Source: Lysobacterales bacterium (GTDB lineage Bacteria; Pseudomonadota; Gammaproteobacteria; Xanthomonadales; Marinicellaceae). Taken from it: 59,302 nucleotides of DNA. The notes beneath the pieces were generated by a model, which was given only the letters and a program-made list of their open reading frames with translations, searched no databases and was not told where the DNA came from. The stretch's first letter is position 1. Every line of letters starts with the position of its first letter. The stretch lies in NCBI GenBank assembly GCA_026996795.1, contig JALWKC010000089.1, positions 1-59,302 of the forward strand. The letters run 5' to 3'. A program made the position numbers and the translations under genes. Positions 14,516 to 31,126 of the stretch are shown here, one piece after another.

Positions 14516-14682
14516 CTAAGGAAGCTCTGATTGAATCTGGCGCGGACAGATTGGAACGTAAATTGTTCAGATCAAGGCGCAAACCACACGCAATAGCGAG
14601 CTATTGTGAAGATTTGCAACGCAGAAATGGACGATTTTATGCCGCAAGATACCGTGTCACGATTCAATCAGCGGCTCCCTAA
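14516..14682 (+). mobile_element. MITE-like repeat, subfamily B, copy 1 (167 bp, CTAA/CTAA flanks)
   Basis: Same termini as subfamily A but diverged arms. Matches 28711-28878 and the reverse complement of 26336-26504. Confidence 0.85.
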
Positions 14683-15683: not shown

Positions 15684-15863
15684 ACACTTTTCTAGTACTT
15701 GAGCAGTCGAAGAACAGCCAGAGGAAAGGCCGCTTGATGAATAGGGCAGCAATGAAACACTGTTCAATCGCCGATCAACTCAAGGGCGTGCAGTATAGCC
15801 AATCGCCCTATTTCCATCAAGCCCTTTTGTGCGGATTTTTCACCGATTGACCGGCTGCCTGCG

Positions 15864-16014
15864 ATATTAACCTGGCATCGATATAGATGATGCTCAGGGC
15901 TTCAAGCCTGCCTCGGAACAAGGCATCGCTTGCAGCCAATGGTTGTTCCATTGGCAAAAGCGATAACACCGGGCCGGGGCAGGCTTGAAGCCCAACTCAT
16001 TGATATAAAAAGGC
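15864..16014 (+). repeat. Type-2 structured repeat, copy A (one TTAACCTGGCATC terminus, nested stems, no second terminus)
   Basis: ATATTAACCTGGCATCGATATAGATGATGCTCAG matches the left end of 19979-20165. Contains a 15-bp stem GGCTTCAAGCCTGCC/GGCAGGCTTGAAGCC. The segment AAGCCCAACTCATTGATATAAAAAGGC matches the reverse complement of 20114-20140. Confidence 0.65.
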
Positions 16015-16032
16015 CCGCCATCAGTGCGAGCC
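16005..16032 (-). terminator. Rho-independent terminator after the secreted-protein gene
   Basis: Minus strand reads GGCTCGC-ACTGATG-GCGGGCC followed by TTTTTAT. It lies 27 nt past the stop at 16059 and its T-run merges into the type-2 repeat. Confidence 0.5.
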
Positions 16033-16058
16033 TTTCAGAGGTTTTATCAGCGCTTTAT

Positions 16059-17327
16059 TCAGCGCCGGGCAAAGCCCTGACCCGACGGTCGCGGTTCTTG
16101 GGGCAAAGCCAGGACCGTGATGCCAGCGGCCACCGATTGCACCGGTGCCAGACGGCTTTGATCCCGCAATTGCACCTGACGAATTTCAAACGGTGCCTTG
16201 AGGCCGGATTTGGCCAGCAAACCCGCGTCTATGGGTAAGCTCAAGGTCTGAGCACCCTTCGGCAACCAGGCGGCAGACTGGGCCACGGCAAAGGGCACTA
16301 CCTTGTTGTTGGCGTCACGGCCGAATAACACGCCCCGCACTTCGAAGCGGCCTTCCTGAGCCACGGTGACACCGATATTCACGCGCGCGGTTCCACTTTT
16401 ATCACGCGTGACATCCAGCTGGCCATTAAAGCCGGCCACCGGCAAGTTGACGGCAAAGGCCGTTTGTGCATCGCGCATGACCTTGTCGTTGGCGGCAAAA
16501 ACGTGGGCAGTCCACAGGCCATTGGCCAGGCCTGTCAGCTCTGAAACCGGCAGCGAAGCCTGAAAGCGGCCATCCGGCTGGCGGGTAAATTTCAGTTCGC
16601 CGGCCACGCGGCCATCGGGCAGGCTGACGTATCCCTGCCATTGGGCGTTCTGGGTGCTTTGGCCATCGCGCAAGGCGGCCACCACCTGAATCGGCTCATT
16701 GGCATTGAAGGTGGCCTTGCTGGTGCCCAATTCCAGTACCTGGCTGGATTGTGGCTCAAACACGTGCACCACCACCGGCACCTTCTCATCCAGGCCAGTC
16801 ACTTTCAATACCGCTTTTCCAGCCGGCACATTCGCCTTGAACGCCACCGTATTCTGTGGGAAGGGCACGCCGGTTTTTTGCACACTTTGGGCGTCGGCAA
16901 AAACATCCAACGGAATGACCTCGCCTGCCGCTTGCAATTGCACCTGACCGGCATTGAGACTCACTGCCTTGCCGGTGGACAAGGGACTGATGCGGATCAC
17001 CGTTTCGCCGCCAGTCACTGGCAGTTTCAGACCCGCAGCCAGCTTGTCACCGGTACTGTCCAGCCAGTATTGGCGGCTTTTTTCGGTGTAAACAGCAGGT
17101 GAAAAGTCCAATGCCTGATCCGCGTCAATGGCATAGCTGAACACCACCGGATCACGGCTGGTGTTGATCAGGGGGGCGTCCACCTGGGTGGATTTTTGCA
17201 ACAGACTGTCGTCCATTGTCACCGGTACATTCCATTTGGCCTGAGGCCCGGCAGCGGCAGCGATAGCGGAAATGGCAAAGCCAAGGGCAAGGGCCACCGT
17301 GTGTTTGGGTGTGAAATTGATTTTCAT
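16059..17327 (-). CDS. Secreted protein of unknown function (signal peptide; size and composition reminiscent of DUF4785-type proteins)
   Basis: 422 aa. N-terminal signal MKINFTPKHTVALALGFAISAIAAAAG. Beta-rich and Ig-like in appearance. The family assignment is from memory only. Confidence 0.6.
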   Translation of the reverse strand: MKINFTPKHTVALALGFAISAIAAAAGPQAKWNVPVTMDDSLLQKSTQVDAPLINTSRDPVVFSYAIDADQALDFSPAVYTEKSRQYWLDSTGDKLAAGLKLPVTGGETVIRISPLSTGKAVSLNAGQVQLQAAGEVIPLDVFADAQSVQKTGVPFPQNTVAFKANVPAGKAVLKVTGLDEKVPVVVHVFEPQSSQVLELGTSKATFNANEPIQVVAALRDGQSTQNAQWQGYVSLPDGRVAGELKFTRQPDGRFQASLPVSELTGLANGLWTAHVFAANDKVMRDAQTAFAVNLPVAGFNGQLDVTRDKSGTARVNIGVTVAQEGRFEVRGVLFGRDANNKVVPFAVAQSAAWLPKGAQTLSLPIDAGLLAKSGLKAPFEIRQVQLRDQSRLAPVQSVAAGITVLALPQEPRPSGQGFARR

Positions 17328-17339
17328 GTCAGCAGCTCC

Positions 17340-18194
17340 TTAAATGTCGTTGCGCAGAATAACATCGAGGCCAAAGCATTGGCGACGGCTCTGGTTATGG
17401 CTCAATGGCTCACCACCGGCCATGCGGCTTTTATCCCGGAACCAGGTGGTGCCTGCCCCTTCCTGGGAGGAGCACTCAAGGAAACCATCGGAGCAACTGC
17501 TCAACCAGGCCTGGGTGACTTCCAGCCCCACATTCAGGGCATAACCGCCGCAATAGCTGTCGCCATCCCACACGGCCGTTTCCACATCGGTACCGACCAC
17601 GTTCCAGAAGCCTTTGGGCAACGCCGGCCGGCCGGAAGTGCCATACAGGTAGTTGGCGTTGTAGTAAGCCATCCATGAAGTCTGTTGCATGCGCACGGCA
17701 TCGGACTTGTAGCCCAGCAGCCAGCCCAGGGAACTTTCAAACACATTACCCTGCATGACCGCATTGGCCAGCGGCGTGCCCTTGGAAGAAGGCGCGAGCG
17801 CATTGACCCAACGAATTTTGTTGATGATATTGGGGTAACGGCTGTCCCAGGTGGGGTTGGACATGATCCAGCGCATGACATTGCCGCCATTGGAGTGCGT
17901 AATCACCACCAGGTCGGTAATGTTCTTGTTGTTGATAAACGTGGTCAGCTGACCGGCCAGACAACCGGCGGCCTGGGAATCCCACATGTATTTTTCAAAA
18001 TTGCAGTTAATGACCACGTAATTGCTCTGATTGGGCAAACCCTGGCGAATGGAATTGACCATGCCCCATTGCCAGTAATCAGCGGCGGCATTGGTTTGGT
18101 GGCCCGTGCCATGCACCAGCGCAACGCCAGTGGCAGCATGGCCCACGGGAACCAGAAAAAAGGCGGCGATAAACGCCAGGCGAGAAAGTTTCAT
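17340..18194 (-). CDS. Secreted lipase/esterase-like alpha/beta hydrolase
   Basis: Signal peptide MKLSRLAFIAAFFLVPVGHA and nucleophile-elbow-like motif VITHSNGG. I prefer ATG 18194 (GGGAGG Shine-Dalgarno 8 nt upstream) to the TTG at 18197 used by the track. Confidence 0.7.
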   Translation of the reverse strand: MKLSRLAFIAAFFLVPVGHAATGVALVHGTGHQTNAAADYWQWGMVNSIRQGLPNQSNYVVINCNFEKYMWDSQAAGCLAGQLTTFINNKNITDLVVITHSNGGNVMRWIMSNPTWDSRYPNIINKIRWVNALAPSSKGTPLANAVMQGNVFESSLGWLLGYKSDAVRMQQTSWMAYYNANYLYGTSGRPALPKGFWNVVGTDVETAVWDGDSYCGGYALNVGLEVTQAWLSSCSDGFLECSSQEGAGTTWFRDKSRMAGGEPLSHNQSRRQCFGLDVILRNDI

Positions 18195-18516
18195 CAAATA
18201 GACCTCCCTATTTTGATCGTGATGGTAAGAAAATGCGCAGTGTGAGTTATGGAGTTATTGTTATTATTCGTATTTGGCGCATGGATTATGCGTCAGCCGG
18301 GCGTGGGATTCCGTGACGCAGGCCACACTTTACACCAGCTCCACCCCTTTTTTCAAACGTTGGTTTGGAGCACATGCGCTATCTTTCAAAATTCGTATGC
18401 ACGGTGGCTTTTTGAAAGGAAAAAACCACAGGAATTCAGGCAGCAGTCTTCGACTAAATTGTGCAGGAAGCCGGTGTGGCATGTGATGCCCCGAAGTCCA
18501 TCGGACAGGGCTGGCA

Positions 18517-18547
18517 CGAGTTCATGATTCGATCAGAGCTTCCCTAG
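18517..18547 (+). repeat. Truncated right end (~30 bp) of a subfamily-A MITE
   Basis: CGAGTTCATGATTCGATCAGAGCTTCCCTAG matches the last 30 nt of copies 1 and 6. Its CTAG supplies the TAG stop of the oxygenase-like gene. Confidence 0.7.
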
Positions 18548-19260
18548 CGAACGCGCGGCCCTTGCTGGACGTCCATTTTCGGGTGACGGAACCAGTAATT
18601 GGTGGCCACGGTGATCCGGGTGCCATCGCCTTTGTAGGGGCTGACTTCGTGCATCAGCCAGGAAGGGAAAATCAGCAGCTGGCCGGCCTGTAACTTGAAG
18701 ACCTGGTGCCCGAAGCCAAAAGGCGCTTTGGTCATTTGCAACAAGCCCGGATCCAGGTATTGATTGGCGGCGGGATTGGGGTGGAAAAACCGGGTCACGC
18801 CCGAATCCACCAGCGTTTGCCCCGGCGCTTCCCCGCTGTCCACGCAATACACCGCAGACCAGCTGGCCATGGGGTGATTGTGGTTCACAAAATAACCGTT
18901 TTTGCGTGTGATGTGGAACCAGGCGTCGGCGTAGACTTCAAATTCGTCCACGGTTTTACGTTTGTACTGGTTGACCATGCCGACCATTTCCAGCACGTGA
19001 TCGGTGATGGCGTTTTTCAGGCGCTGTACGCACGGTTCTTCCCAGGAAAACAGGTCGAAATGGCTCTCGAACAGCTCATCGGTGGCCACGGAGTTCTGGT
19101 TCGGATTCCGGTAATGAGTTCCTTCGGCCTCGCGTGCCAGAAACAGCGCTTTGAGTTCGGCGTTGAGGGACTCGGCATCCGGCAATGCCGCCACCCCGAA
19201 GGGCACGGCAAAGGCCGGAATAATTTGAATAGCCGGTGGCTGTTTCATGCGTGTTGCCAT
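18544..19260 (-). CDS. Putative 2OG-Fe(II) oxygenase-like protein (TIGR02466-type)
   Basis: 238 aa. Has an HxH...H arrangement (VNHNHP ... LMHEV) and an overall layout like the conserved hypothetical 2OG-FeII_Oxy_5 family. An alternative ATG lies at 19248. Confidence 0.65.
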   Translation of the reverse strand: MATRMKQPPAIQIIPAFAVPFGVAALPDAESLNAELKALFLAREAEGTHYRNPNQNSVATDELFESHFDLFSWEEPCVQRLKNAITDHVLEMVGMVNQYKRKTVDEFEVYADAWFHITRKNGYFVNHNHPMASWSAVYCVDSGEAPGQTLVDSGVTRFFHPNPAANQYLDPGLLQMTKAPFGFGHQVFKLQAGQLLIFPSWLMHEVSPYKGDGTRITVATNYWFRHPKMDVQQGPRVR

Positions 19261-19318
19261 TTCCTGGCCAAGACTGGCCGCGTTATCCTCAAGGAGGCAA
19301 GAGTCAGAAGCGATGTCA

Positions 19319-19358
19319 TTATTAACTTGGCATCAATATAGGCGATGCCAGGTTAATA
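19319..19358 (+). repeat. Type-2 repeat, copy B (40-bp minimal palindrome of the two termini)
   Basis: TTATTAACTTGGCATCAATATAGGCGATGCCAGGTTAATA. The TAA stop of the phosphatase gene (19353-19355) lies inside it. Confidence 0.7.
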
Positions 19359-19967
19359 CCGCTTTTTTGTGCTTGTCGTGGTGGCAGCCTTGACCGGCAG
19401 GTCTTCCAGTGTCACCACCATTTTCTTGCCCAGCAATCCTTCCAGCCCCGGCGGCCACCAACCAAAAGCCCGGGCGCGATCGAGTGCTTCGTTCACCGGC
19501 ACGCCTTTTTCATTGATCAACCAGGCAATGTAGGCCTCAGAAGCGCGATGACCGGAGCGGCAGTGCATCAATACCTTGCCCTGCTCACCGGCTAATGCCT
19601 GAGCCAGGGCCTTGGTCTGCTCCGGGCTGCGCGGAAATTCCTTGCCACCGATAGGGATCATCACATATTCAATACCCATCTTCTTCAATTCGGCGGCTTC
19701 ATCAAAACGCAGCGGCTTCATTTCTTCCGGTGTTCTGAAATTAATCACTTTGGTGATGCCGGCCTGCTTCAATCGTTGCAGGTCCGGGTAAAACGGCTGC
19801 GGCCCGATAAACAGGTTCTGATCGGCCGGGTACACCATCTGCAGGTAATCCGGGCGTGGCGGCGCCTTGACCGGTCGCGGTTGGGGCTGAGCCAACGCGG
19901 ACAGGCTGAACACCAGCACGACCAGCACGGCCAGCGGGGAAAAACGAAAACGACTTGGGTTGTGCAT
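19353..19967 (-). CDS. Exported Cys-based (CX5R) phosphatase-like protein (DSP/DUF442-like)
   Basis: Trimmed to ATG 19967 (GGAG 8 nt upstream); the longer track ORF runs into a repeat. Signal-like N-terminus FSPLAVLVVLVFSLSALA. Active-site motif HCRSGHRAS. Confidence 0.75.
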   Translation of the reverse strand: MHNPSRFRFSPLAVLVVLVFSLSALAQPQPRPVKAPPRPDYLQMVYPADQNLFIGPQPFYPDLQRLKQAGITKVINFRTPEEMKPLRFDEAAELKKMGIEYVMIPIGGKEFPRSPEQTKALAQALAGEQGKVLMHCRSGHRASEAYIAWLINEKGVPVNEALDRARAFGWWPPGLEGLLGKKMVVTLEDLPVKAATTTSTKKRY

Positions 19968-19978
19968 AAGTTTCTCCG

Positions 19979-20165
19979 TTATTAACCTGATATCAATATA
20001 GGCGATGCTCAGTCGTGATGCGCTGTTTGCCAGCAAGGCATCAACTCACCGCTGTAGTCATTCTACAGCAAGAGTTGATAACGCAGTCTGGCGGACAGCG
20101 CATCGCGGCTGAGCCTTTTTATATCAATGAGTTGGGCTTCATCTATATTGATGCCAGGTTAATAA
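19979..20165 (+). mobile_element. Type-2 structured repeat, copy C (187 bp, complete, with inverted termini)
   Basis: Termini TTATTAACCTGATATCAATATAG ... CTATATTGATGCCAGGTTAATAA. Long internal stem GCTCAGTCGTGATGCGCTGT / ACAGCGCATCGCGGCTGAGC enclosing a double hairpin. Confidence 0.75.
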
Positions 20166-20218
20166 ATAACGCCAAATAATGCGCAAGAATATCAGTTTTG
20201 GGGTCAGCTTGCCTGGAT

Positions 20219-21016
20219 TTACGAAAACAGCGTGGTGGCCATCTGACGCCGAAAAGCCGCGCGCGCGGCGGGGTCATCCACCAGATTGAGCGCATTCACC
20301 AGCGCCTGACGCACGGCATCGCGGTCATTGCCCGTGGTGTTTTCCAGCACCTGCAATAATGCCTTGACGCCGTTTTCCACTTCACCGGCGGCGATGTGGC
20401 CAATGGCGGAACCGATTTCCGGCTTGTCAGCCAGTTTTTCCTGCAAATCCAGCAACTGCAACGCGCTGGCCAGTTTTTCTGCCGCTGGCGAGGTGCGAAC
20501 ATCGTGAGGCAAGGCTTTCCAGATTTCGCGCGCCTTGTCCAGTTCGCCCTGTTGCATGAGCAACTGCACCAGTTGCAGGCGCGATTTATCATCATCGCGC
20601 TGCTGCAGTTTTTCCATGGCTACGTCTGTCTGGCCTTTTTCAATGGCGTCCTGAATGGCCAGCCATTCCTCGTCAGGGGCGCTTTCGATGTGTTTTTCGA
20701 TAAACTGGCGAATGGCGCCTTCAGGCTGCACGCCCATGAATTGATCGACAATTTCACCATTTCGGAATAGTGCCACCGTGGGCAGGGAACGGATGCCATA
20801 CTGCATGGCCAGCGCCTGCTCGGCGTCGGCGTTGACCTTGGCTAGGGCCACTTGACCGCCGTAGCTGCCCACCGCCTGATGCAAGACAGGCATCAACATG
20901 CGACAGGGGCCACACCAATCGGCCCAGAAATCCACCACCACGGGCCGCTTGAAAGATTCCTCGATGACTTTTTGCTGAAAATCCGCCTGAGTGGCGTCGT
21001 AAACATGTTCACTCAT
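20219..21016 (-). CDS. Thioredoxin-domain protein with C-terminal TPR-like domain (YbbN/CnoX-like)
   Basis: 265 aa. VVVDFWADWCGPCRMLMP thioredoxin active site followed by a helical repeat region. AAGGAA Shine-Dalgarno. Confidence 0.85.
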   Translation of the reverse strand: MSEHVYDATQADFQQKVIEESFKRPVVVDFWADWCGPCRMLMPVLHQAVGSYGGQVALAKVNADAEQALAMQYGIRSLPTVALFRNGEIVDQFMGVQPEGAIRQFIEKHIESAPDEEWLAIQDAIEKGQTDVAMEKLQQRDDDKSRLQLVQLLMQQGELDKAREIWKALPHDVRTSPAAEKLASALQLLDLQEKLADKPEIGSAIGHIAAGEVENGVKALLQVLENTTGNDRDAVRQALVNALNLVDDPAARAAFRRQMATTLFS

Positions 21017-21096
21017 GATTGTTCCTTAGTTGACCTTTATTTCGTTTGTCCTGTTTGTTCTGTCTTCTGGCTTATTCAACCGGTAAAACCCGGTTA

Positions 21097-21684
21097 TTAA
21101 CTGGCGGCAATATACGGGTTTTCGCCGGTGCTGTGGTCGGTGGCGTCCAACACGCCCTTGATTTCCGGAAAAGCCTGCAGCAGTTTGGATTCGATGCCCA
21201 TGCTGAGGGTCTGGCTGGCCATGCCACAACCGTGGCAGCCGCCACCAAACTCAATGATGGCATAGCCTTCATCGTCAAGGTCCACCAGTCGCGCCCAACC
21301 ACCGTGGCTGGCCAGTTGCGGATTAATCTCGCTGTTGAGGAACCATTCCACCCGTTCCTTGAGTGGCGCGTCCTGTCCCGGCTCCTTGCCCTTGAGGCCC
21401 GGGGCCTTGATATTAAGCTGACCGCCGGTTTCTGTTTCTTCATAATCAATTTCAGCACCTTGCAGGTATTTCTCGTGGTCTTTTTCCACCACGATCTTGA
21501 AGTCGCCCTGGTCCAGCGCTTCATCGCCTTCGGCCATTTCGTTTTCTTCACAGAAATTCAAATAGCAGTCGGCCATGGGCGTACCGGGGCGATCCACCAC
21601 CAGGCGCAGGTGCAAATCGTCGATGTCCTGCTCGTCGAGGACATTTTTCAGGTATTTTTTTGCCGGGTCAGTGACTGTAATCAT
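21097..21684 (-). CDS. nfuA: Fe-S cluster biogenesis protein NfuA
   Basis: 195 aa. A-type-like N-terminal domain plus an Nfu C-terminal domain with GGGCHGCGMASQTL. Confidence 0.9.
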   Translation of the reverse strand: MITVTDPAKKYLKNVLDEQDIDDLHLRLVVDRPGTPMADCYLNFCEENEMAEGDEALDQGDFKIVVEKDHEKYLQGAEIDYEETETGGQLNIKAPGLKGKEPGQDAPLKERVEWFLNSEINPQLASHGGWARLVDLDDEGYAIIEFGGGCHGCGMASQTLSMGIESKLLQAFPEIKGVLDATDHSTGENPYIAAS

Positions 21685-22703
21685 GCGATTTTTCCATACA
21701 GGTAAGGCAGGGATTCATCCAGGCGGTAATCAATGCCGGAATGTGTGCCATTGAACTCCTGATAAATATGTTCAATGGCGTGGTTTTCAAGGGCGTTGTG
21801 CAATCGGCGCATGCCGTAGTGAATCATGTACTGGTCGCGGCTGCCACAATCCATCCACAAGCCCTTGAGTTGAGACAGGTTGGCCGCAGAGCTGGCCACC
21901 CGCTGCACCGGGTCGTGTGCCTGCCAGCGCGCCCAGCGTTCGGGGAGGAGTTCACAGGTGTGTACGTCAAAGGGTAACTGGATGCTGGCCGGTTCATCCG
22001 CCGGATCATAGGTGGCAGCCATGCATAATGTCATCAGCGTGTGAATGTCTCCGCCGGTGACTTTCTTGCTTTTCCAGAAGCGTTTCAGAAAGTGCATTGG
22101 GTCACCGCCGTATTGGCTCAGGACATCGGCCACAACCGGGAAATCCCGTTGATACAGCACGTCGAAACCGGCATCGCCTGAGTGGTTGGCCACAGCACCC
22201 CACTGACCGGGCCAGTCCATTGCACAGCGCATGGCGGCAAAACCACCGGATGACTTGCCGAGCACGGCACGGTGCCGGGCTAGTGGGGCGATGCGAAAGC
22301 GATCAACCACTGCCGGCACCAATTCCTTGTGCAGAAAACTGGCATACTGGCCCATGCCGGGTGAGTCCAGGTACTGATTGCCGCCCAGATAGGTAAAGCA
22401 ATCCGGAAAAGCCATCACCACCGGCCCCATCAGGCCTTCGCCAATCAGGCGGTCCAGGCGCTCGGGCACGCTTTCTTCAAAGGCCCGCCAGGCGGTGCTT
22501 TTCAGTCCGCTGCCGGTGTAGGCCGCCAGGTAAAGCATAAACGGGTACTGCTTCGTGCTGGCGTCATAACCCGGTGGCAGGTACACGGGCACCTGGCGCT
22601 GGTGTGGGTCGCCCCAGGGGTTATTGCGCAGTAACTGGCTGTTTATGGTCAGCATTTCCAGCCGGCCGGCCGGGTATTGGCGAGGATGTTTGTAGCGGGA
22701 CAT
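21681..22703 (-). CDS. Esterase-family alpha/beta hydrolase (putative esterase, PF00756-like)
   Basis: 340 aa. VPVYLPPGYD motif and nucleophile elbow LGKSSGG. ATGA overlap with nfuA. Confidence 0.75.
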   Translation of the reverse strand: MSRYKHPRQYPAGRLEMLTINSQLLRNNPWGDPHQRQVPVYLPPGYDASTKQYPFMLYLAAYTGSGLKSTAWRAFEESVPERLDRLIGEGLMGPVVMAFPDCFTYLGGNQYLDSPGMGQYASFLHKELVPAVVDRFRIAPLARHRAVLGKSSGGFAAMRCAMDWPGQWGAVANHSGDAGFDVLYQRDFPVVADVLSQYGGDPMHFLKRFWKSKKVTGGDIHTLMTLCMAATYDPADEPASIQLPFDVHTCELLPERWARWQAHDPVQRVASSAANLSQLKGLWMDCGSRDQYMIHYGMRRLHNALENHAIEHIYQEFNGTHSGIDYRLDESLPYLYGKIA

Positions 22704-23813: not shown

Positions 23814-24908
23814 TTATTCCACGCCGGATTTGTCAGAGGCTGAAACAATGTCCGACTCGAACCAGGGCTTGCCGGCGCGATAATGGTCCAGGCGTTGGAG
23901 CATTTCACCCAGCAATTCATCGTCCTCATCCACCACCTCACGCACCAGATCAATGGCATTTTGCTGCGCGGCGATGGCGCTGGGGTAATCACGCAAGGCC
24001 GCGTGGATGGCCGCCTCGGTGTCGCGAAAACTCGCCACGGCATAGGCGTTGTCAGGCACGCTTTCCCAGTCCAGGGCCGACCACAGGCGCATAGCCTTTT
24101 CCGGGTTCCGGCACGCCTTGTCCCTGGCCGTAGCCAGTATCCAGGCGTGATTATTGAAAGACCACGGTTCACCCAGTTTTTCTGCCTGCGCGTAATAATG
24201 GCCGGCTTTGTGGCAGTCCGGCGTTTGCCCGAGCAGGCCCGACAGGTAAACATTGCCCAGAGATTGCAGGGCTTTGGCCACATGGCGCTGGCCAGCCAGT
24301 TCAAACCAGTCAAGGGCATTGGCATGGTCATCTTGAGTGGCTGCATGCTGGCCCAGCATCAAGGCGGCTTCCCCATGCCCCTGATCGGCCGCCTGTTGCA
24401 GCCAGTACAGGGCCTGCTGCAACACGGCCTCGGCAGGGTATTTGTCATCCACGAGTACGGGTTTGGCCTTTGGCCCAGCGGTGTTTTTGCGGCCCAAAGC
24501 CTGCTTTTCTTTTGTGCCCTGTTCCGCTTTCGCTGAGTCCGCCGCCTCCACGGCTGCCTCCCAGCGTTGATAGAGGTTTTTGCCCAACAGGAAAGCAATA
24601 TCCGATTGCTTTGACACGTTATCGATCAACAACCGGGGCAATGGCAACGGGGCCAGCCCCGGTTTTTTTTCTTCTTGCGGCTCTTGCGCGGGAGCCGAAG
24701 TAAAACTTTCGGCCTGTTTTCCTTCCCCTGCGGGGGTGACCACGCGACGTACCGGTTCTGGTGACTGAGCGCCTGTCGTTTTGGCTGCCAGTTCAGGGTT
24801 CTGCTGGGCCATTGCCAGTGGCATGACCAGCCAGGCGGCGAGTACCAGCATGAACCCGGTTCGTTGATGAGCGCGCCTAAACGGCGCCGTGACGCTGAGC
24901 TGAGGCAT
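23814..24908 (-). CDS. Exported Sel1-repeat (TPR-like) protein
   Basis: 364 aa. Signal-like FMLVLAAWLVMPLAMA. Sel1-type repeats (ALYWLQQAADQGHGEAALMLGQ...). Starts 3 nt after the Mur-ligase stop. Confidence 0.7.
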   Translation of the reverse strand: MPQLSVTAPFRRAHQRTGFMLVLAAWLVMPLAMAQQNPELAAKTTGAQSPEPVRRVVTPAGEGKQAESFTSAPAQEPQEEKKPGLAPLPLPRLLIDNVSKQSDIAFLLGKNLYQRWEAAVEAADSAKAEQGTKEKQALGRKNTAGPKAKPVLVDDKYPAEAVLQQALYWLQQAADQGHGEAALMLGQHAATQDDHANALDWFELAGQRHVAKALQSLGNVYLSGLLGQTPDCHKAGHYYAQAEKLGEPWSFNNHAWILATARDKACRNPEKAMRLWSALDWESVPDNAYAVASFRDTEAAIHAALRDYPSAIAAQQNAIDLVREVVDEDDELLGEMLQRLDHYRAGKPWFESDIVSASDKSGVE

Positions 24909-24911
24909 GGA

Positions 24912-26336
24912 TTACTTTCCGGTTTTCAGGCTGGGCACTTGTTTGGTAACTGCCGCCTGGTTATTGGTTGTCGTGTTATTCGTGACCAGTGACTGCCGCA
25001 CCGCGTGTTCAAAAGCCTCACCGCGTTGAGCGTAGTTGGCAAAGGCATCAAAACTGGGCGCGCCGGGAGAAAGCAGCACCGTGCCGCCTTTGGGCGTATG
25101 AATCTGCGCCAGCGCCACCGCTTCGGCCATGTTTTCTGCCCGCACAATGCGCGAAAGCAGCGGCTGTTGCTTCAAGGCCGCCAGGATACGGCTGGCATTT
25201 TCACCGGTCACAATCAGACACGCCGGTGGATTGGCGGCAATGGCCCGGGCAAATTCATCCCAATCCAGCTGGCGATCGTAGCCGCCCAGAATAAGGCCGG
25301 TGTTTCGCGGCTCAAGAGTGGCCAAAGCCGCCAGGCTGGCGTGAGGGGTGGAGGCAATGGAATCGTTGATCCAGTGCCACTGGCCGATGCGTCCCAAAGG
25401 CTGCAGGCGATGCGGCAAGGGCTGAAAACTTCGCGCCAATTCCAGGGCCTTTGCCACCGGCAGACCCAGTCCGTCAATGACTTCAAGCACTGCGGCCAGG
25501 TTTTGCAGGTTATGGCGGCCAGGCAAAACCCAGTCGCTGGCCCGGAAGACGGCCTGCCCCTGACACCGTACTTCATCGCCACTCACCTGCCATTGGGGTG
25601 TGCGGGCTTTTTTTAACCATGCCGGTGTGGCCAGACCCGCACCATGCAGACGGGACTCAAAATGCCCCAGTGGCTGACCCAGCACCGCCTGGCGGGCGTT
25701 TTCCAGCAACCGCAGCTTGTCGGTGTAATAGCGTGCTTCGCTGCCATGCCAGTCCAGGTGTTCTGGGAAGAGGTTCAACAACAACGCCACATCGGCAGAA
25801 ATGGTGCCGTCGGCGGCTTGATAACTGGAGGTTTCCAGCACCGTCCAGTCAGCCGGAAATTCCACCGTTTCCAGCAAGGCCACGCCAATGTTGCCGGCCA
25901 GGTTGACAGAAAAACCCAGTCCACGAAGAACGTGGGCCAGCAGGCTGGCGCTGGTGGATTTGCCCTTGGTTCCGGTGACCGCGATCACGCGACCGTGACG
26001 GTGGTAGGCAAACCACAGGGCCGTTGCCCCAACCATGGGCACCGACACGGTATCTGCCGGTGGCTGGTATGGGCTGATGCCCGGTGACTTGATGACCAGA
26101 TCAAAAGCATTCAGGCCATCGCTGGAAACCAGCTCGGTACAGAATTCCCAGTCACAAGCCGGAGCATCTGCCGGGGCCGGTTTTTCTTCGGGCCGGCAGA
26201 AAACCGTGAACCGGCAGCCGGGATGAAAACGGGCCAAATACGCCGCAGTGGCGCGGCCTTCCACACCAAACCCCCACACGGCAATGCGCAACTTCGACAA
26301 GTCCGCCGGGTCTGGAGGCAAGGGGGTTTCAGTCAT
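24912..26336 (-). CDS. Stand-alone MurD-like Mur ligase (candidate MurD2, UDP-MurNAc-L-Ala:L-Glu ligase)
   Basis: Rossmann-type N-terminus IAVWGFGVEGRA and Mur-ligase P-loop VTGTKGKST. It is not in a dcw cluster. I trimmed it to ATG 26336 because the 11 upstream codons of the track ORF lie inside a MITE. Confidence 0.65.
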   Translation of the reverse strand: MTETPLPPDPADLSKLRIAVWGFGVEGRATAAYLARFHPGCRFTVFCRPEEKPAPADAPACDWEFCTELVSSDGLNAFDLVIKSPGISPYQPPADTVSVPMVGATALWFAYHRHGRVIAVTGTKGKSTSASLLAHVLRGLGFSVNLAGNIGVALLETVEFPADWTVLETSSYQAADGTISADVALLLNLFPEHLDWHGSEARYYTDKLRLLENARQAVLGQPLGHFESRLHGAGLATPAWLKKARTPQWQVSGDEVRCQGQAVFRASDWVLPGRHNLQNLAAVLEVIDGLGLPVAKALELARSFQPLPHRLQPLGRIGQWHWINDSIASTPHASLAALATLEPRNTGLILGGYDRQLDWDEFARAIAANPPACLIVTGENASRILAALKQQPLLSRIVRAENMAEAVALAQIHTPKGGTVLLSPGAPSFDAFANYAQRGEAFEHAVRQSLVTNNTTTNNQAAVTKQVPSLKTGK

Positions 26337-26504
26337 TAGGGAAGCTCTGATTGAATCGTGACACGGCATCTTATGGCGTAAAATCGTCCATTTCTGCGTT
26401 GCAACCCTTCACAATAGCCTGGCTATTGCGTGCGGTTTGCGCCTTGAACTGAACAATTTTACACGACAATCTGCTCGCGCCAGATTCGATCAGAGCTTCC
26501 TTAG
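26336..26504 (-). mobile_element. MITE-like repeat, subfamily B, copy 2 (inverted; TTAG/TTAG flanks)
   Basis: Its reverse complement aligns end to end with 14516-14682 and 28711-28878. It occupies almost the whole spacer between the PP-loop gene and the Mur-ligase gene. Confidence 0.85.
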
Positions 26505-26539
26505 GAGATTCCGCATGCCGGCGCAGGAAAAGCATGACG

Positions 26540-27865
26540 CTAGCTGGCTTGCCGGGGCAGGAATTCCGGCGGGATTTCGTGTTCATGGTGAAAGTCCAGC
26601 ACGTCTTTTTCTTCAGCGGTGGAAGTGGGCACCACCTTGTTTCGCAACAAGTGAACTACGTGATCACCGGCCCATTCCTTTTCATTGGCCAGCCAGTTAA
26701 AGGCCACCCGGCTTTCGGTGACTTCCCCCACGCATTCGAAGGGTTTAATGCCTCGCACCCCCAGCAGTTCTTCATAACCGGGCAGCTGGCGGGGGTCATC
26801 CAGCAGATTGTGGCCAAAAATCTGCAGCAAGCGGGCCTTATCCACAAACGGCGCCAGACCCAGGAACACAAACCGGCACTTGGGACAATCGCCACACCAG
26901 AGCTTGTCGCCATTGCGGCTGCCGCCCAGGTGAAAATTGCGGTTGCAGCTGGTGAAGGTGTCAAAGTATTGGGGGTACTGGCTGAAGCGTTTCAGAATGG
27001 CCAGTTCCGACCACGGGCGTTGCAGGGAAAAATAATGCAGATCGGGGCTGATGGTGCGCTTGATCTGAGCCTGAAAGTCGCGCTCGAAAGCCAGGCTTTT
27101 GGAATATTGGTGATTCACCGGCTGGCCATCGGCGTTAATGGTGCTGTGGCATTCAGCCGAACGCTCGTTGGAAAACACAATGCTGTCATAACCATGCAGC
27201 AAGGCCGCCACTACCGCAATGGCTGAATTGATGGCCGTGACCGGAACGTGGCCGTTGAAAAATGCGTCCGGTGGCGCGTTCACGAGTTTGTCGTCTAGCT
27301 GACGCAACACCTGATACACCGACACGCCGGTTTTGGCCGCAGCTCGCAGGATCACCGGCGATTGGCCCACCACAAACAGGCGCATGGGTTTGTTGCGCTT
27401 TATGAGTTCTTCCACCGTCACAATGGAATCCTTGCCGCCACCAAAGGGCACCAGTGAACGGTGCGGCAGGCGCAGGTGCCAGTTATCGGGGATGGCCGCT
27501 TGCGCATCAAAATGCAGCCTGTCTGTCAACGAGACCTGGTGACCATAGGCCAGCTCGGCCAGCCCATGCAGCCAGGTGTTGCGGAGAAATTCAGCCGTCT
27601 TGCTGTCAGGTTTCTGACCCCGCGACAGCACTTTTTCCGGCAGCCCCATTTTGGCGTAGCTGACACCGGCCAACCAATGCAACAGGCGGCAGGCAGCCTT
27701 CAGCGCCTGGCGATGCGGTTCGTCCTTTGGCAGCTCAAAAGCGGGAAAACTCAACACTTCAGTCATTTCGCCCAGCCCCTGCACGTGATACGACAGCTGC
27801 AAGGTGGCATCGGCGGGCTTCAAACGCCAGTGGCCGAAGTGAAATTCCTGGTGAAATTCGGGCAT
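26540..27865 (-). CDS. PP-loop (GGGKDS) ATP-pyrophosphatase-like protein; candidate MurL (UDP-MurNAc-L-Ala-L-Glu epimerase)
   Basis: 441 aa. FGGGKDS at residues 141-147 resembles the SGGxDS PP-loop. A Cys cluster (CGDCPKCRF) is present. It lies directly upstream of the stand-alone MurD-like gene. Confidence 0.5.
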   Translation of the reverse strand: MPEFHQEFHFGHWRLKPADATLQLSYHVQGLGEMTEVLSFPAFELPKDEPHRQALKAACRLLHWLAGVSYAKMGLPEKVLSRGQKPDSKTAEFLRNTWLHGLAELAYGHQVSLTDRLHFDAQAAIPDNWHLRLPHRSLVPFGGGKDSIVTVEELIKRNKPMRLFVVGQSPVILRAAAKTGVSVYQVLRQLDDKLVNAPPDAFFNGHVPVTAINSAIAVVAALLHGYDSIVFSNERSAECHSTINADGQPVNHQYSKSLAFERDFQAQIKRTISPDLHYFSLQRPWSELAILKRFSQYPQYFDTFTSCNRNFHLGGSRNGDKLWCGDCPKCRFVFLGLAPFVDKARLLQIFGHNLLDDPRQLPGYEELLGVRGIKPFECVGEVTESRVAFNWLANEKEWAGDHVVHLLRNKVVPTSTAEEKDVLDFHHEHEIPPEFLPRQAS

Positions 27866-27884: not shown

Positions 27885-27910
27885 TAAAAAAGCCCCCGCA
27901 GAACGGGGGC
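27885..27910 (-). terminator. Rho-independent terminator of the glycine-zipper gene
   Basis: Minus strand reads GCCCCCG-TTCTG-CGGGGGC followed by TTTTTTAT, about 50 nt past the stop at 27960. Confidence 0.7.
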
Positions 27911-28710: not shown

Positions 28711-28878
28711 CTAGGGAAGCTCTGATTGAATCTGGCGCAAGCAGATTGTCGTGAAAAATTGTTCAGTTCAAGGCGTAAGCCGCACGCAATAGCAAGCTAT
28801 TGTGAAGGTTTGCAACACAGAAATGGACGATTTTACGCCGCGAGATGCCTGGTCACGATTCGATCAGAGTTTCCCTAG
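28711..28878 (+). mobile_element. MITE-like repeat, subfamily B, copy 3 (168 bp, perfect CTAG/CTAG flanks)
   Basis: CTAG-GGAAGCTCTGATTGAATC ... GATTCGATCAGAGTTTCC-CTAG. Lies between the glycine-zipper gene and selD. Confidence 0.88.
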
Positions 28879-28991: not shown

Positions 28992-30014
28992 ATGACAGTC
29001 AAACTCACCGAATACTCCCATGGCGCCGGTTGCGGCTGCAAGATCAGTCCGGCGGATCTGGAAGTGATTCTGAAAACGCAGCTCCCCGAGCAACCCGATG
29101 CGCGTTTGCTAGTGGGCAACCACAGTCGCGACGATGCGGCCGTGTATGACATAGGCAACGGTCAGGCGGTGGTTTCCACCACGGACTTTTTCATGCCCAT
29201 TGTGGACGACCCACACACTTTTGGCCGCATTGCCGCCACCAATGCCATCAGCGACGTGTATGCCATGGGCGGCAAGCCGGTGATGGCCATCGCCATTCTC
29301 GGCTGGCCACTAGACAAGCTGCCACCGGAAGTGGCCCAACAGGTGATTGAAGGTGGCCGCAGCGCCTGTGCCGATGCCGGTATTGTGCTGGCCGGCGGCC
29401 ACAGCATTGATGCGCCGGAACCGATTTTTGGCCTGGCCGTAACTGGCCTGGTGGATGTGGACCGGGTCAAGAAAAACAACACGGCGCAGGCCGATGATGT
29501 GCTATTTCTGACCAAGCCGCTGGGCATTGGCATTCTGACCACGGCCCAGAAGCAGAAGAAACTGAAAAAACAACACGAACACCTGGCACCGGCCCTCATG
29601 TGTCAGCTGAATGATTTTGGCGCCATCGCCGGCGCACAGCCCTGGGTGCATGCCATGACCGACGTGACGGGGTTTGCCCTGGCCGGTCACCTGCTGGAAA
29701 TGTGCGAAGGCAGCCACAAGGGCGCGGCCATTGTCTTTGATGACATTCCGGTGATTCCCGAAGCACGCGATTACGCCGAACAAGGCTGTATCCCCGGCGG
29801 CACCGGACGCAATTTTGCCGCCTACGGCCACAAGCTGCCGGCGCTCACCGACTGGCAGAAAACCCTGCTGTGCGACCCGCAAACCTCCGGTGGCCTGCTG
29901 ATTGCCGTGGACCCGGCCCATGCCGACGAATTCCGTCAACTGGTGGCTCAACATGGCATCATTGCCCAGGCTCTGGGTCGCATTCGCGAACAAACCGGCA
30001 TCGAACTGGTGTAA
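28992..30014 (+). CDS. selD: Selenide, water dikinase (selenophosphate synthetase), Cys-type
   Basis: 340 aa. [20 protein letters not shown] matches the SelD N-terminal active site with Cys rather than Sec. Confidence 0.93.
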
Positions 30015-31126
30015 TGAAACGTCCGGATACCAGCGATTACGCCAGGCTCTTTCTCAACGACACACCACTACTGGATGTGCGCGCACCGGTGGAGTTTGCC
30101 AAAGGCGCTTTTCCCCAGGCGGTGAACCGGCCCTTGATGAACGACAGCGAAAGGCAGCAGGTGGGCATCCGTTACAAGCAGGCCGGACAGGACGCCGCCA
30201 TCGCATTGGGGCACGAACTGGTTAGCGGGAAAAAAAAGCAACAACGGCTGGATCAGTGGTTGGCATTCGCGCGCCAGCACCCGGAGGGCTACTTGTACTG
30301 TTTTCGCGGCGGTCTGCGTTCGAGCACGGTGCAGCACTGGCTGCGTGAAGCCGGCTGTGACTACCCGCTGGTGCGTGGCGGCTACAAAGCCATGCGGCGT
30401 TTTCTGCTGCAGGAACTGGAAAAACCGGCCCCCATGCTGCGGCTGGCCGGTGAAACCGGCACCGGCAAGACCGAACTGCTGAAACAACTGATGGCCGAAG
30501 GCCACCCGGGCGTGGATCTGGAAGGGCTGGCCAATCACAAGGGTTCCTCTTTTGGCCGTTCGCCGGAGGACCACCAGCCCACGCCGATCAATTTTGAAAA
30601 CGCCCTTGCCATCGACTGGCTGAAAGCCCGCCAGGCCCTCGAAACCCACGCCCAAGGGCAACGCATTCTGGTGGAAGACGAAGGCCGTGCCATTGGCCGC
30701 CTGGCGCAACCGCTGGGGTTCTTTGAACACTTACGCCAGCAACCGTTGGTTATCCTGACTGCGCCGTTTGCAGAACGCGTAGACCGCATTTATGCCGAAT
30801 ACGTGCAACAACAGGGCCAGAACTACCGCAAGCTCTATGGCGAGTACGGGCAGGAAAAACACCGCCAGGCCATGCTGGATGCGCTGGATCGCATTCGCAA
30901 GCGCCTGGGCGGAGCGCGGCACCAGGCCATTCGTGACAGCATGTCACAAGCGTTTCAAAAAGACTCTGATATACTCCACCGGCAATGGATTGGCGCGCTG
31001 CTGCGGGATTATTACGACCCCATGTACGCCTACCAGTTGAGCCGCAAAGACTGCCCGGTGCTGTTTACCGGCAGCGCCGATGAAATTCGCGAATTTTTGA
31101 ACCAACCCACTCAGGCATTGACTTGA
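30014..31126 (+). CDS. selU: tRNA 2-selenouridine synthase
   Basis: Trimmed to ATG 30014, which overlaps the selD stop as TAATG. Rhodanese N-terminus LLDVRAPVEFAKGAFPQAVNRPLMND plus P-loop GETGTGKT. Confidence 0.9.
   Translation: MKRPDTSDYARLFLNDTPLLDVRAPVEFAKGAFPQAVNRPLMNDSERQQVGIRYKQAGQDAAIALGHELVSGKKKQQRLDQWLAFARQHPEGYLYCFRGGLRSSTVQHWLREAGCDYPLVRGGYKAMRRFLLQELEKPAPMLRLAGETGTGKTELLKQLMAEGHPGVDLEGLANHKGSSFGRSPEDHQPTPINFENALAIDWLKARQALETHAQGQRILVEDEGRAIGRLAQPLGFFEHLRQQPLVILTAPFAERVDRIYAEYVQQQGQNYRKLYGEYGQEKHRQAMLDALDRIRKRLGGARHQAIRDSMSQAFQKDSDILHRQWIGALLRDYYDPMYAYQLSRKDCPVLFTGSADEIREFLNQPTQALT

Follow-up and report, generated by a model that had tools for sequence, protein, structure and literature searches.

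To our knowledge, the MurD2/MurL pathway is the only known way to peptidoglycan D-glutamate that involves neither a racemase nor a transaminase. Its use as a target for narrow-spectrum antibiotics has been advocated. The pathway was discovered in the order Xanthomonadales and first characterised in Xanthomonas oryzae. The 59,302-nt stretch of DNA analysed here (contig JALWKC010000089.1, referred to as the window) carries two neighbouring minus-strand genes, one for a 441-aa protein with a PP-loop and one for a Mur ligase, followed by a gene for a Sel1-like protein. The locus is very probably a murL-murD2(-sel1) operon serving this alternative early route of peptidoglycan synthesis, as judged from sequence comparison. 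A MurD2/MurL-like pair had been proposed in a first-pass annotation of the DNA, together with an account of work from the Dairi laboratory in which MurD2 of X. oryzae attaches L-Glu onto UDP-MurNAc-L-Ala, with MurL converting it to D-Glu. That account agrees with the literature.

Enzymes from X. oryzae, Micromonospora and Salinispora have been reported to carry out an ATP-dependent, unidirectional L-to-D epimerisation that yields AMP. MurL consumes one ATP in the reaction, and adenylation of the α-carboxylate of the terminal L-Glu has been proposed. In a published survey, orthologues from Alphaproteobacteria and Actinobacteria are included among the pathway members, the actinobacterial enzymes having been verified in vitro, and MurD2/MurL-bearing genera are reported to lack D-Glu-forming genes. 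Reviews from 2018 and 2021 describe MurL as a protein without known domains and call its mechanism unclear; a literature search of incomplete coverage returned no later structural paper. The system has already been characterised and curated models of it exist, so the pair in the window represents further orthologues. The assignment is based on the families to which the two proteins belong, the ligase's specificity residues, the near-universal linkage of the two genes, the existence of natural fusions and the QueC-like PP-loop fold of the MurL core. The open reading frames and motifs of the earlier annotation were all recovered on the minus strand. The features of the three genes are as follows, with ligase residues numbered along the 485-aa frame (shifted by -11 when counted from Met12).

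26540-27865, minus strand: murL, open reading frame of 441 aa; match to NCBIfam NF041275, Pfam MurL_N and MurL_epimerase_C on record, AlphaFold2 model
27425-27445, minus strand: PP-loop FGGGKDS, MurL residues 141-147; predicted binding loop for the α/β-phosphates of ATP
26876-26947, minus strand: MurL cysteine cluster C307-X16-C324-X2-C327-X2-C330; invariant, predicted QueC-like Zn site
26723-26743, minus strand: PFECVGE motif with C378 in the C-terminal helical region of MurL; invariant in 30 homologues, C378 a candidate catalytic residue
24912-26369, minus strand: Mur ligase (murD2), open reading frame of 485 aa; probable true coding sequence 24912-26336, 474 aa from Met12
25953-25973, minus strand: ATP-binding P-loop GTKGKST of the ligase, residues 133-139; includes K137, which corresponds to E. 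coli K115
25761-25763, minus strand: codon of ligase E203, aligned with E197 of X. oryzae MurD2 and D182 of E. coli MurD
25272-25274, minus strand: codon of ligase R366, aligned with R358 of X. oryzae MurD2 and K348 of E. coli MurD
25050-25058, minus strand: ligase P438-S439-F440, aligned with P433/F435 of X. oryzae MurD2 and A414-S415-L416 of E. coli MurD
23814-24908, minus strand: Sel1-like gene, 364 aa; begins 3 nt past the ligase stop, probably co-transcribed

The 441-aa protein belongs to the MurL family over its full length. It matches NCBIfam NF041275 over residues 5-436 of 441 with 467.7 bits (E 2.9e-140), and the precomputed Pfam table for the exact sequence lists MurL_N (PF26299) and MurL_epimerase_C (PF26298). 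A separate Pfam search, which included the isolated core domain at E <= 10, gave no match; the copy of Pfam used seemingly does not hold these two families. A sequence search of the PDB also found nothing. Identity to MurL of Xanthomonadales and Marinicella from species-representative genomes is 41-47% among the matches listed. An alignment of 30 MurL sequences reaching down to 43% identity has 77 invariant columns, all of them by definition kept in the window protein, and they include C307, C324, C327, C330, C378, H206, H252 and E234. Since GGGKDS is invariant throughout this alignment, the motif is not a chance occurrence. The other family-invariant motifs, NGHxPxTxIN, FSNExS, NHQxSK, SCNRNF, WCxxCPKC and PFECVGE, are also all retained. 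When 1.84 billion cluster representatives (clusters at 50% identity) were searched exhaustively, 2,392 MurL-family clusters were found at E <= 1e-3 and 1,122 at the stricter threshold of E <= 1e-30. The possibility raised in the first-pass annotation that the partner might group with tRNA-modifying PP-loop enzymes is not borne out, since no match to the TilS, MnmA or TtcA families was found in Pfam or NCBIfam.

The ligase is of the MurD type. It scores 291.7 bits against the NCBIfam murD model TIGR01087 (cutoff 211.95), compared with 61.8 for murE, 50.4 for murC, 38.5 for murF, 26.3 for mpl and 20.5 for folC. All models of the non-MurD Mur-ligase clades lie between 15 and 68 bits, far under their own cutoffs. 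On these scores an assignment to Mpl, FolC, CapB, MurC/E/F or cyanophycin synthetase was rejected, among them the three clades (Mpl, CapB and FolC) that the earlier annotation had named as possible alternatives. In Pfam the protein matches Mur_ligase_M and Mur_ligase_C, and MurD-like_N at 20.2 bits, which is under the gathering cutoff of 27. The catalytic residues K137, N160, E179, H204 and K218 correspond to K115, N138, E157, H183 and K198 of E. coli MurD (numbering without Met1). Identity is 29% to E. coli MurD and 40-46% to MurL-linked ligases.

The residues that set the choice of glutamate isomer match those of X. oryzae MurD2. In that enzyme E197, R358, P433 and F435 stand at the places of E. 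coli MurD D182, K348, A414 and L416 (PMC8788868). The E197D/R358K double mutant of X. oryzae MurD2 switches to D-Glu specificity and the K319T mutant of E. coli MurD gains some use of L-Glu (PMC8788868). By alignment the window ligase carries E203, R366, P438 and F440 at these positions and I338 at the position of K319, whereas E. coli MurD has D182, K348, A414, L416 and K319, and MurD of T. maritima (4buc) has D, K and A at 182, 348 and 414, the positions read. Seventeen MurL-linked ligases from Marinicella, Xanthomonas, Dyella, Rhodanobacter, Luteimonas, Lysobacter and alphaproteobacterial metagenome-assembled genomes (MAGs) share E, I, R, P and F with the window, except that the last position is Y in 2 of the 17.

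The two genes are linked almost universally. In a sample of 80 species-representative genomes with a MurL homologue, 78 have a ligase homologue immediately downstream of murL and in the same orientation; the other two contigs stop shortly past murL. Among ten unusually long MurL homologues, nine are fusions of MurL with a MurD-type ligase, in both orders (P0125, P0153, P0181, P0203, P0216, P0222, P0238, P0248 and P0262). In the tenth, P0149, an amino-acid-kinase and ACT module is joined to MurL. The fused ligases have R at the position of E. coli 348 in 8/9 and P at 414 in 9/9, and K319 is lost in 9/9. Position 182 is E in 3/9, D in 5/9 and A in 1/9. Because D or A can occupy this position in a MurL partner, E197 is not a universal marker of MurD2: judged by these alignments, it marks the enzymes of the Xanthomonadales type, including the window ligase, and not all MurL partners. 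Across the natural fusions R358, P433 and the loss of K319 are better markers.

An AlphaFold2 model of MurL, built from the 30-sequence alignment, reached a mean predicted local distance difference test score (pLDDT) of 91.7 and a predicted template modelling (TM) score of 0.92. When this model was compared with the PDB using Foldseek, the top matches were PP-loop ATP pyrophosphatases only: QueC (2pg3, E 4e-5, probability 1.00, TM 0.57 on the target; 3bl5, TM 0.63) and Cap9 (9nto, TM 0.67), then QatC, argininosuccinate synthase (ArgG), TtuA, MnmA and LarE. The tRNA thiolases were placed below QueC. The PP-loop suggested earlier from the motif is thus supported at the level of fold, and in the model the MurL core is a QueC-like PP-loop fold. 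GGGKDS (142-147) lies between the first strand (137-140) and the first helix (145-156) of the Rossmann-like domain. E. coli QueC has a cysteine cluster of the form C188-X8-C197-X2-C200-X2-C203, and all four cysteines of the MurL cluster are invariant. The distance from the PP-loop to CxxCxxC is 182 residues in MurL and 188 in E. coli QueC, and the MurL Cys4 cluster is predicted from the sequence to be a QueC-like Zn site. Pfam QueC and ATP_bind_3 gave no match to the MurL core even at E <= 10, and the profile comparison with QueC by hhalign was not significant. Membership of the QueC family proper is thereby ruled out and kinship at the level of fold is retained. The N-terminal domain of about 130 aa, modelled alone, had a pLDDT of 90.9 and no structural relatives at E <= 1e-3. 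RNase H-like matches of this domain, with TM about 0.4, were judged not meaningful.

The QueC reaction starts by ATP-dependent adenylation of a carboxylate. The QueC-like fold of the model fits the published ATP-to-AMP chemistry of MurL and provides a structural basis for it. In the pathway proposed for the window, the MurD-type ligase would use ATP to attach L-glutamate, not D-glutamate, onto UDP-MurNAc-L-Ala; MurL would then turn the terminal L-Glu into D-Glu unidirectionally, at the cost of ATP and with release of AMP. The PP-loop domain, with GGGKDS and the putative Cys4 Zn site, may adenylate the α-carboxylate of the terminal L-Glu as QueC does. Adenylation would acidify the Cα proton and so permit inversion, perhaps with an invariant residue (C378, H206 or H252, for example) acting as base, or by way of an oxazolone. 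Once the adenylate is hydrolysed, the D-product would be free and the reaction irreversible. C378 of PFECVGE is a candidate catalytic residue by inference only, from its conservation. Taken from the model, the QueC-like PP-loop and the Cys4 site would offer a residue-level catalytic hypothesis for MurL as a QueC-type carboxylate adenylase.

The three genes of the locus lie in the same orientation. The first-pass annotation placed the ligase directly downstream of the 441-aa gene. It is indeed the next gene on the same strand, but it is separated by 170 nt to the first ATG, or 203 nt to the probable true start, and this gap is filled by a repeat resembling a miniature inverted-repeat transposable element (MITE). 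The non-coding features are as follows.

26337-26503, minus strand: MITE-like palindromic repeat of 167 nt between the murL stop and the ligase start
14517-14681, plus strand: MITE-like copy
28712-28877, plus strand: MITE-like copy
27892-27910, minus strand: terminator-like GC hairpin and T-run between the upstream glycine-zipper gene and murL

The element is 165-167 nt long and has terminal inverted repeats (TARGGAAGCTCTGAT...ATCAGAGYTTCCCTA) and TA ends, a possible target duplication. The gap sequence folds as RNA into one near-perfect hairpin of -94.8 kcal/mol (z = -7.73). A dedicated inverted-repeat search of the gap reported none, although the folding and the alignment of copies clearly show one, and Rfam has no match to the element. 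The window holds three copies where 0 are expected, each apparently between genes. Summed contig depth in the source metagenome is ~15,700-22,000 over the element against ~50 on its flanks, and hundreds of metagenome contigs end at the element boundaries with unrelated flanks. Because of this excess of depth and these contig ends, the element is regarded as a very high-copy MITE-like repeat. It is absent from the murL-ligase gaps of the relatives whose MurL is 88, 82 and 76% identical, which measure 59, -4 and 9 nt. A second metagenome run contains a strain that diverges by about 8% at the nucleotide level, and its contigs break within the element at this same site. An allele without the insertion was looked for in three metagenome runs and none was found.

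The first ATG of the 485-aa frame lies inside the element, whose copy here stops at the TA that directly precedes the Met12 ATG (nt 26336). Since the ENA gene call and the N-terminal alignment with relatives both indicate Met12, the true start is most likely this codon, giving a protein of 474 aa. The former ribosome-binding region of the ligase has been displaced by 167 nt, and the start codon adjoins the -95 kcal/mol hairpin. Neither of the candidate ATGs (26322-26369) is preceded by an obvious Shine-Dalgarno sequence. On the other side of murL, the terminator-like hairpin lies about 27 nt upstream of the murL start codon; 7 of the 8 base pairs in its stem are GC, and TTTTTT follows. This sequence suggests that murL opens a separate transcription unit. 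There is little space for a murL promoter between the hairpin and the start codon, and a sigma-70 promoter scan around the operon found no site.

The window is part of a 76.5-kb scaffold from a hydrothermal-vent metagenome. The relatives of its MurL at 96, 88, 82, 76 and 74% identity are all metagenome or MAG sequences. Those at ~50% come from Marinicella, an Alcanivoracaceae-labelled MAG and vent gammaproteobacteria, and Xanthomonadales follow at ~45%. NCBI taxonomy places Marinicella in the Lysobacterales. By these sequence relationships the host is an uncultured gammaproteobacterium of hydrothermal vents, with Marinicellaceae and Xanthomonadales as relatives. For RNase G, a housekeeping protein encoded in the window, the taxonomic neighbours and their order are the same as for MurL, and because the two sets match, the murL-ligase pair appears to have been inherited vertically. 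The three closest contigs have a common order of glycine-zipper gene, murL, ligase, Sel1-like gene, rluC-like gene, esterase, nfuA and thioredoxin.

The genes around the pair are ordinary chromosomal housekeeping genes: yhdP, rng, maf, rlmH, rsfS, a sulfatase, rsmA, pdxA, surA and lptD, and also tRNA-Thr (the sole Rfam match in the window), nfuA, thioredoxin, the rluC-like gene, selD-selU, mrcA, prpBCD, aminopeptidase P and a DUF1631 gene. No dcw (division and cell wall) gene occurs anywhere in the 59-kb window, as the earlier annotation had stated for the surroundings of the ligase, which is the only MurD-like gene there. Neither dcw genes nor murI, nor a D-amino-acid aminotransferase, nor a dcw-cluster murD were found in the window or in those flanks of the relatives that were examined, and tblastn with E. 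coli MurI against the window gave no match at E <= 10. Just upstream of the locus, on the opposite strand (28992-31126, plus), lies a pair of selD (selenophosphate synthase, AIRS domains) and selU (tRNA 2-selenouridine synthase, AAA_SelU), followed by mrcA (PBP1A); the arrangement is the same in the 88% relative. In the 82% relative the place immediately upstream of murL is taken by genes for a PIN-domain protein and a PhdYeFM-antitoxin-like protein, probably a toxin-antitoxin cassette (L091, 5328-5956), and by a gene set of the arsenic-resistance type. The window has only the glycine-zipper gene at this place.

Several observations weigh against the assignment. The 467.7 bits of the window MurL fall short of the NF041275 equivalog cutoff of 700. 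In a calibration of this model, core Xanthomonadales exceed the cutoff (Xanthomonas albilineans 818, Lysobacter 801 and Dyella 772 bits), and Marinicella marina (451), an alphaproteobacterial MAG (462) and the 76%-identical relative (464) score as the window protein (468) does. Because of this likeness the cutoff looks taxon-specific, and it would mark core Xanthomonadales, not function. The hhalign comparison of the MurL profile with E. coli QueC gives a probability of 3.2% and E 0.014, the PP-loop (SGGQDS) being the sole aligned segment, and the first serine of the classical SGGxDS is glycine in all MurLs. None of the RNA-seq runs searched for the locus holds it. The 167-nt hairpin that adjoins the ligase start codon is very stable and could hinder co-expression of the two genes. 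Finally, the view is that of a 76-kb scaffold, with the rest of the genome outside it.

This restricted view leaves room for a pair that is functional and at the same time auxiliary or redundant, in an organism that also has murI or a D-amino-acid aminotransferase together with a canonical dcw murD; a MITE hairpin at the ligase start would be more easily tolerated if the gene were dispensable. The survey cited above, however, reports that D-Glu-forming genes are absent from genera with MurD2/MurL, and the pair, its invariant residues and its synteny are kept across relatives from 96% to 74% identity. The strain with ~8% nucleotide divergence also appears to retain both genes with the same insertion. 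Since the pair is kept in all of these, it is taken to be under purifying selection, and redundancy is considered unlikely, if worth bearing in mind. A different reading takes the ligase for a regular MurD that adds D-Glu and has moved out of the dcw cluster, and the 441-aa protein for a PP-loop enzyme similar to QueC that serves an unrelated function. TIGR01087, a model of D-Glu ligases, is indeed above its cutoff, and the nearest solved folds to MurL are QueC-family enzymes. But the ligase has the E/R/P/F set and no K319, unlike MurD of E. coli (that of T. maritima has D, K and A at the three positions read), the partner belongs to the MurL family along its full length with a QueC likeness at the PP-loop level only, and the linkage in 78/80 genomes and the natural fusions tie the two together, which makes this reading very improbable. 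That the ligase belongs to another clade (Mpl, CapB, FolC, MurC/E/F or cyanophycin synthetase) and its partner to the tRNA-modifying PP-loop enzymes has nothing in its favour beyond shared superfamily membership. With 291.7 bits for murD against 61.8 or less for the clades listed above, no TilS, MnmA or TtcA match and the tRNA thiolases under QueC in the fold search, it can practically be dismissed.

The third gene follows the ligase at a distance of 3 nt. Its description in the earlier annotation as an exported Sel1-repeat protein is consistent with a Pfam Sel1 match of 32.2 bits (cutoff 30.7) and with an N-terminus that reads, by eye, as a signal peptide (MPQLSVTAPFRRAHQRTGFMLVLAAWLVMPLAMA/QQ). 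The gene abuts or overlaps the ligase end in the lineage of the window (four contigs) and in five Marinicella-group genomes, and loci with a Sel1-like gene downstream of the ligase are L004, L005, L006, L024, L027, L088, L090 and L091. It was not found after the ligase in core Xanthomonadales, and among 70 loci with enough sequence no gene downstream of the ligase is universally conserved. Signal-like N-termini are common to these Sel1-like proteins, as are a pair of invariant cysteines and the motif CRNxxKA. It is conceivable, if quite unlikely, that in the Marinicellaceae-like clade the L-Glu route is a three-gene module in which the Sel1-like protein acts as a periplasmic partner, tying cytoplasmic stem-peptide synthesis to a step of wall assembly or remodelling. 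A periplasmic link of the protein to wall metabolism is speculation.

The locus adds nothing fundamentally new to the known picture of MurD2/MurL. It extends the reach of the pathway to uncultured, deep-branching vent relatives of the Xanthomonadales, and the 2,392 clusters indicate that the MurL family is far larger than the published genus list suggests. Standard annotation overlooks or mislabels such genes. The 700-bit cutoff of NF041275 shuts out all MurLs beyond core Xanthomonadales and leaves those of Marinicella, Alphaproteobacteria and the vent lineage unnamed. Such proteins carry labels like 'hypothetical protein' or even 'endonuclease domain-containing protein'. Since TIGR01087 is above its cutoff on a MurL partner, pipelines that use this model would mislabel the ligase as a D-glutamate ligase.

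Compared with the described systems, the window pair is closest to that of X. oryzae. Both ligases are three-domain MurD-type enzymes encoded beside murL and off the dcw cluster, with the same E, R, P and F and, in both, no lysine at the position of E. coli K319. The window ligase is about 40% identical to MurD2 of Xanthomonas albilineans and differs in that its native upstream region is replaced by the end of a MITE. MurL has the length, the two-domain architecture and the position immediately upstream of a MurD-type ligase of the published protein; it comes from a vent lineage outside the genera of the published distribution, and a MITE-like insertion separates it from its ligase. Canonical MurD (E. 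coli b0088; T. maritima 4buc) belongs to the same fold family and has the same catalytic residues. Its gene stands in the dcw cluster, flanked by mraY and ftsW, whereas the window ligase lies among unrelated housekeeping genes.

QueC, QatC and Cap9 are the best structural matches to the MurL core and have in common with it a PP-loop between strand 1 and helix 1. The QueC group and MurL both have a Cys-X(n)-CxxCxxC cluster ~185 residues past the PP-loop. Unlike QueC, MurL has the extra N-terminal domain of ~130 aa and a helical C-terminal extension of ~100 aa, and the outcome of its reaction would be epimerisation followed by hydrolysis, in contrast to the amide or nitrile formed by QueC. MurI serves the same need as MurL, since both provide the D-Glu that occupies position 2 in the stem peptide of peptidoglycan. 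MurI is a cofactor-independent two-Cys racemase of unrelated fold that acts reversibly on free glutamate, whereas MurL acts irreversibly on a nucleotide-linked dipeptide at the cost of ATP.

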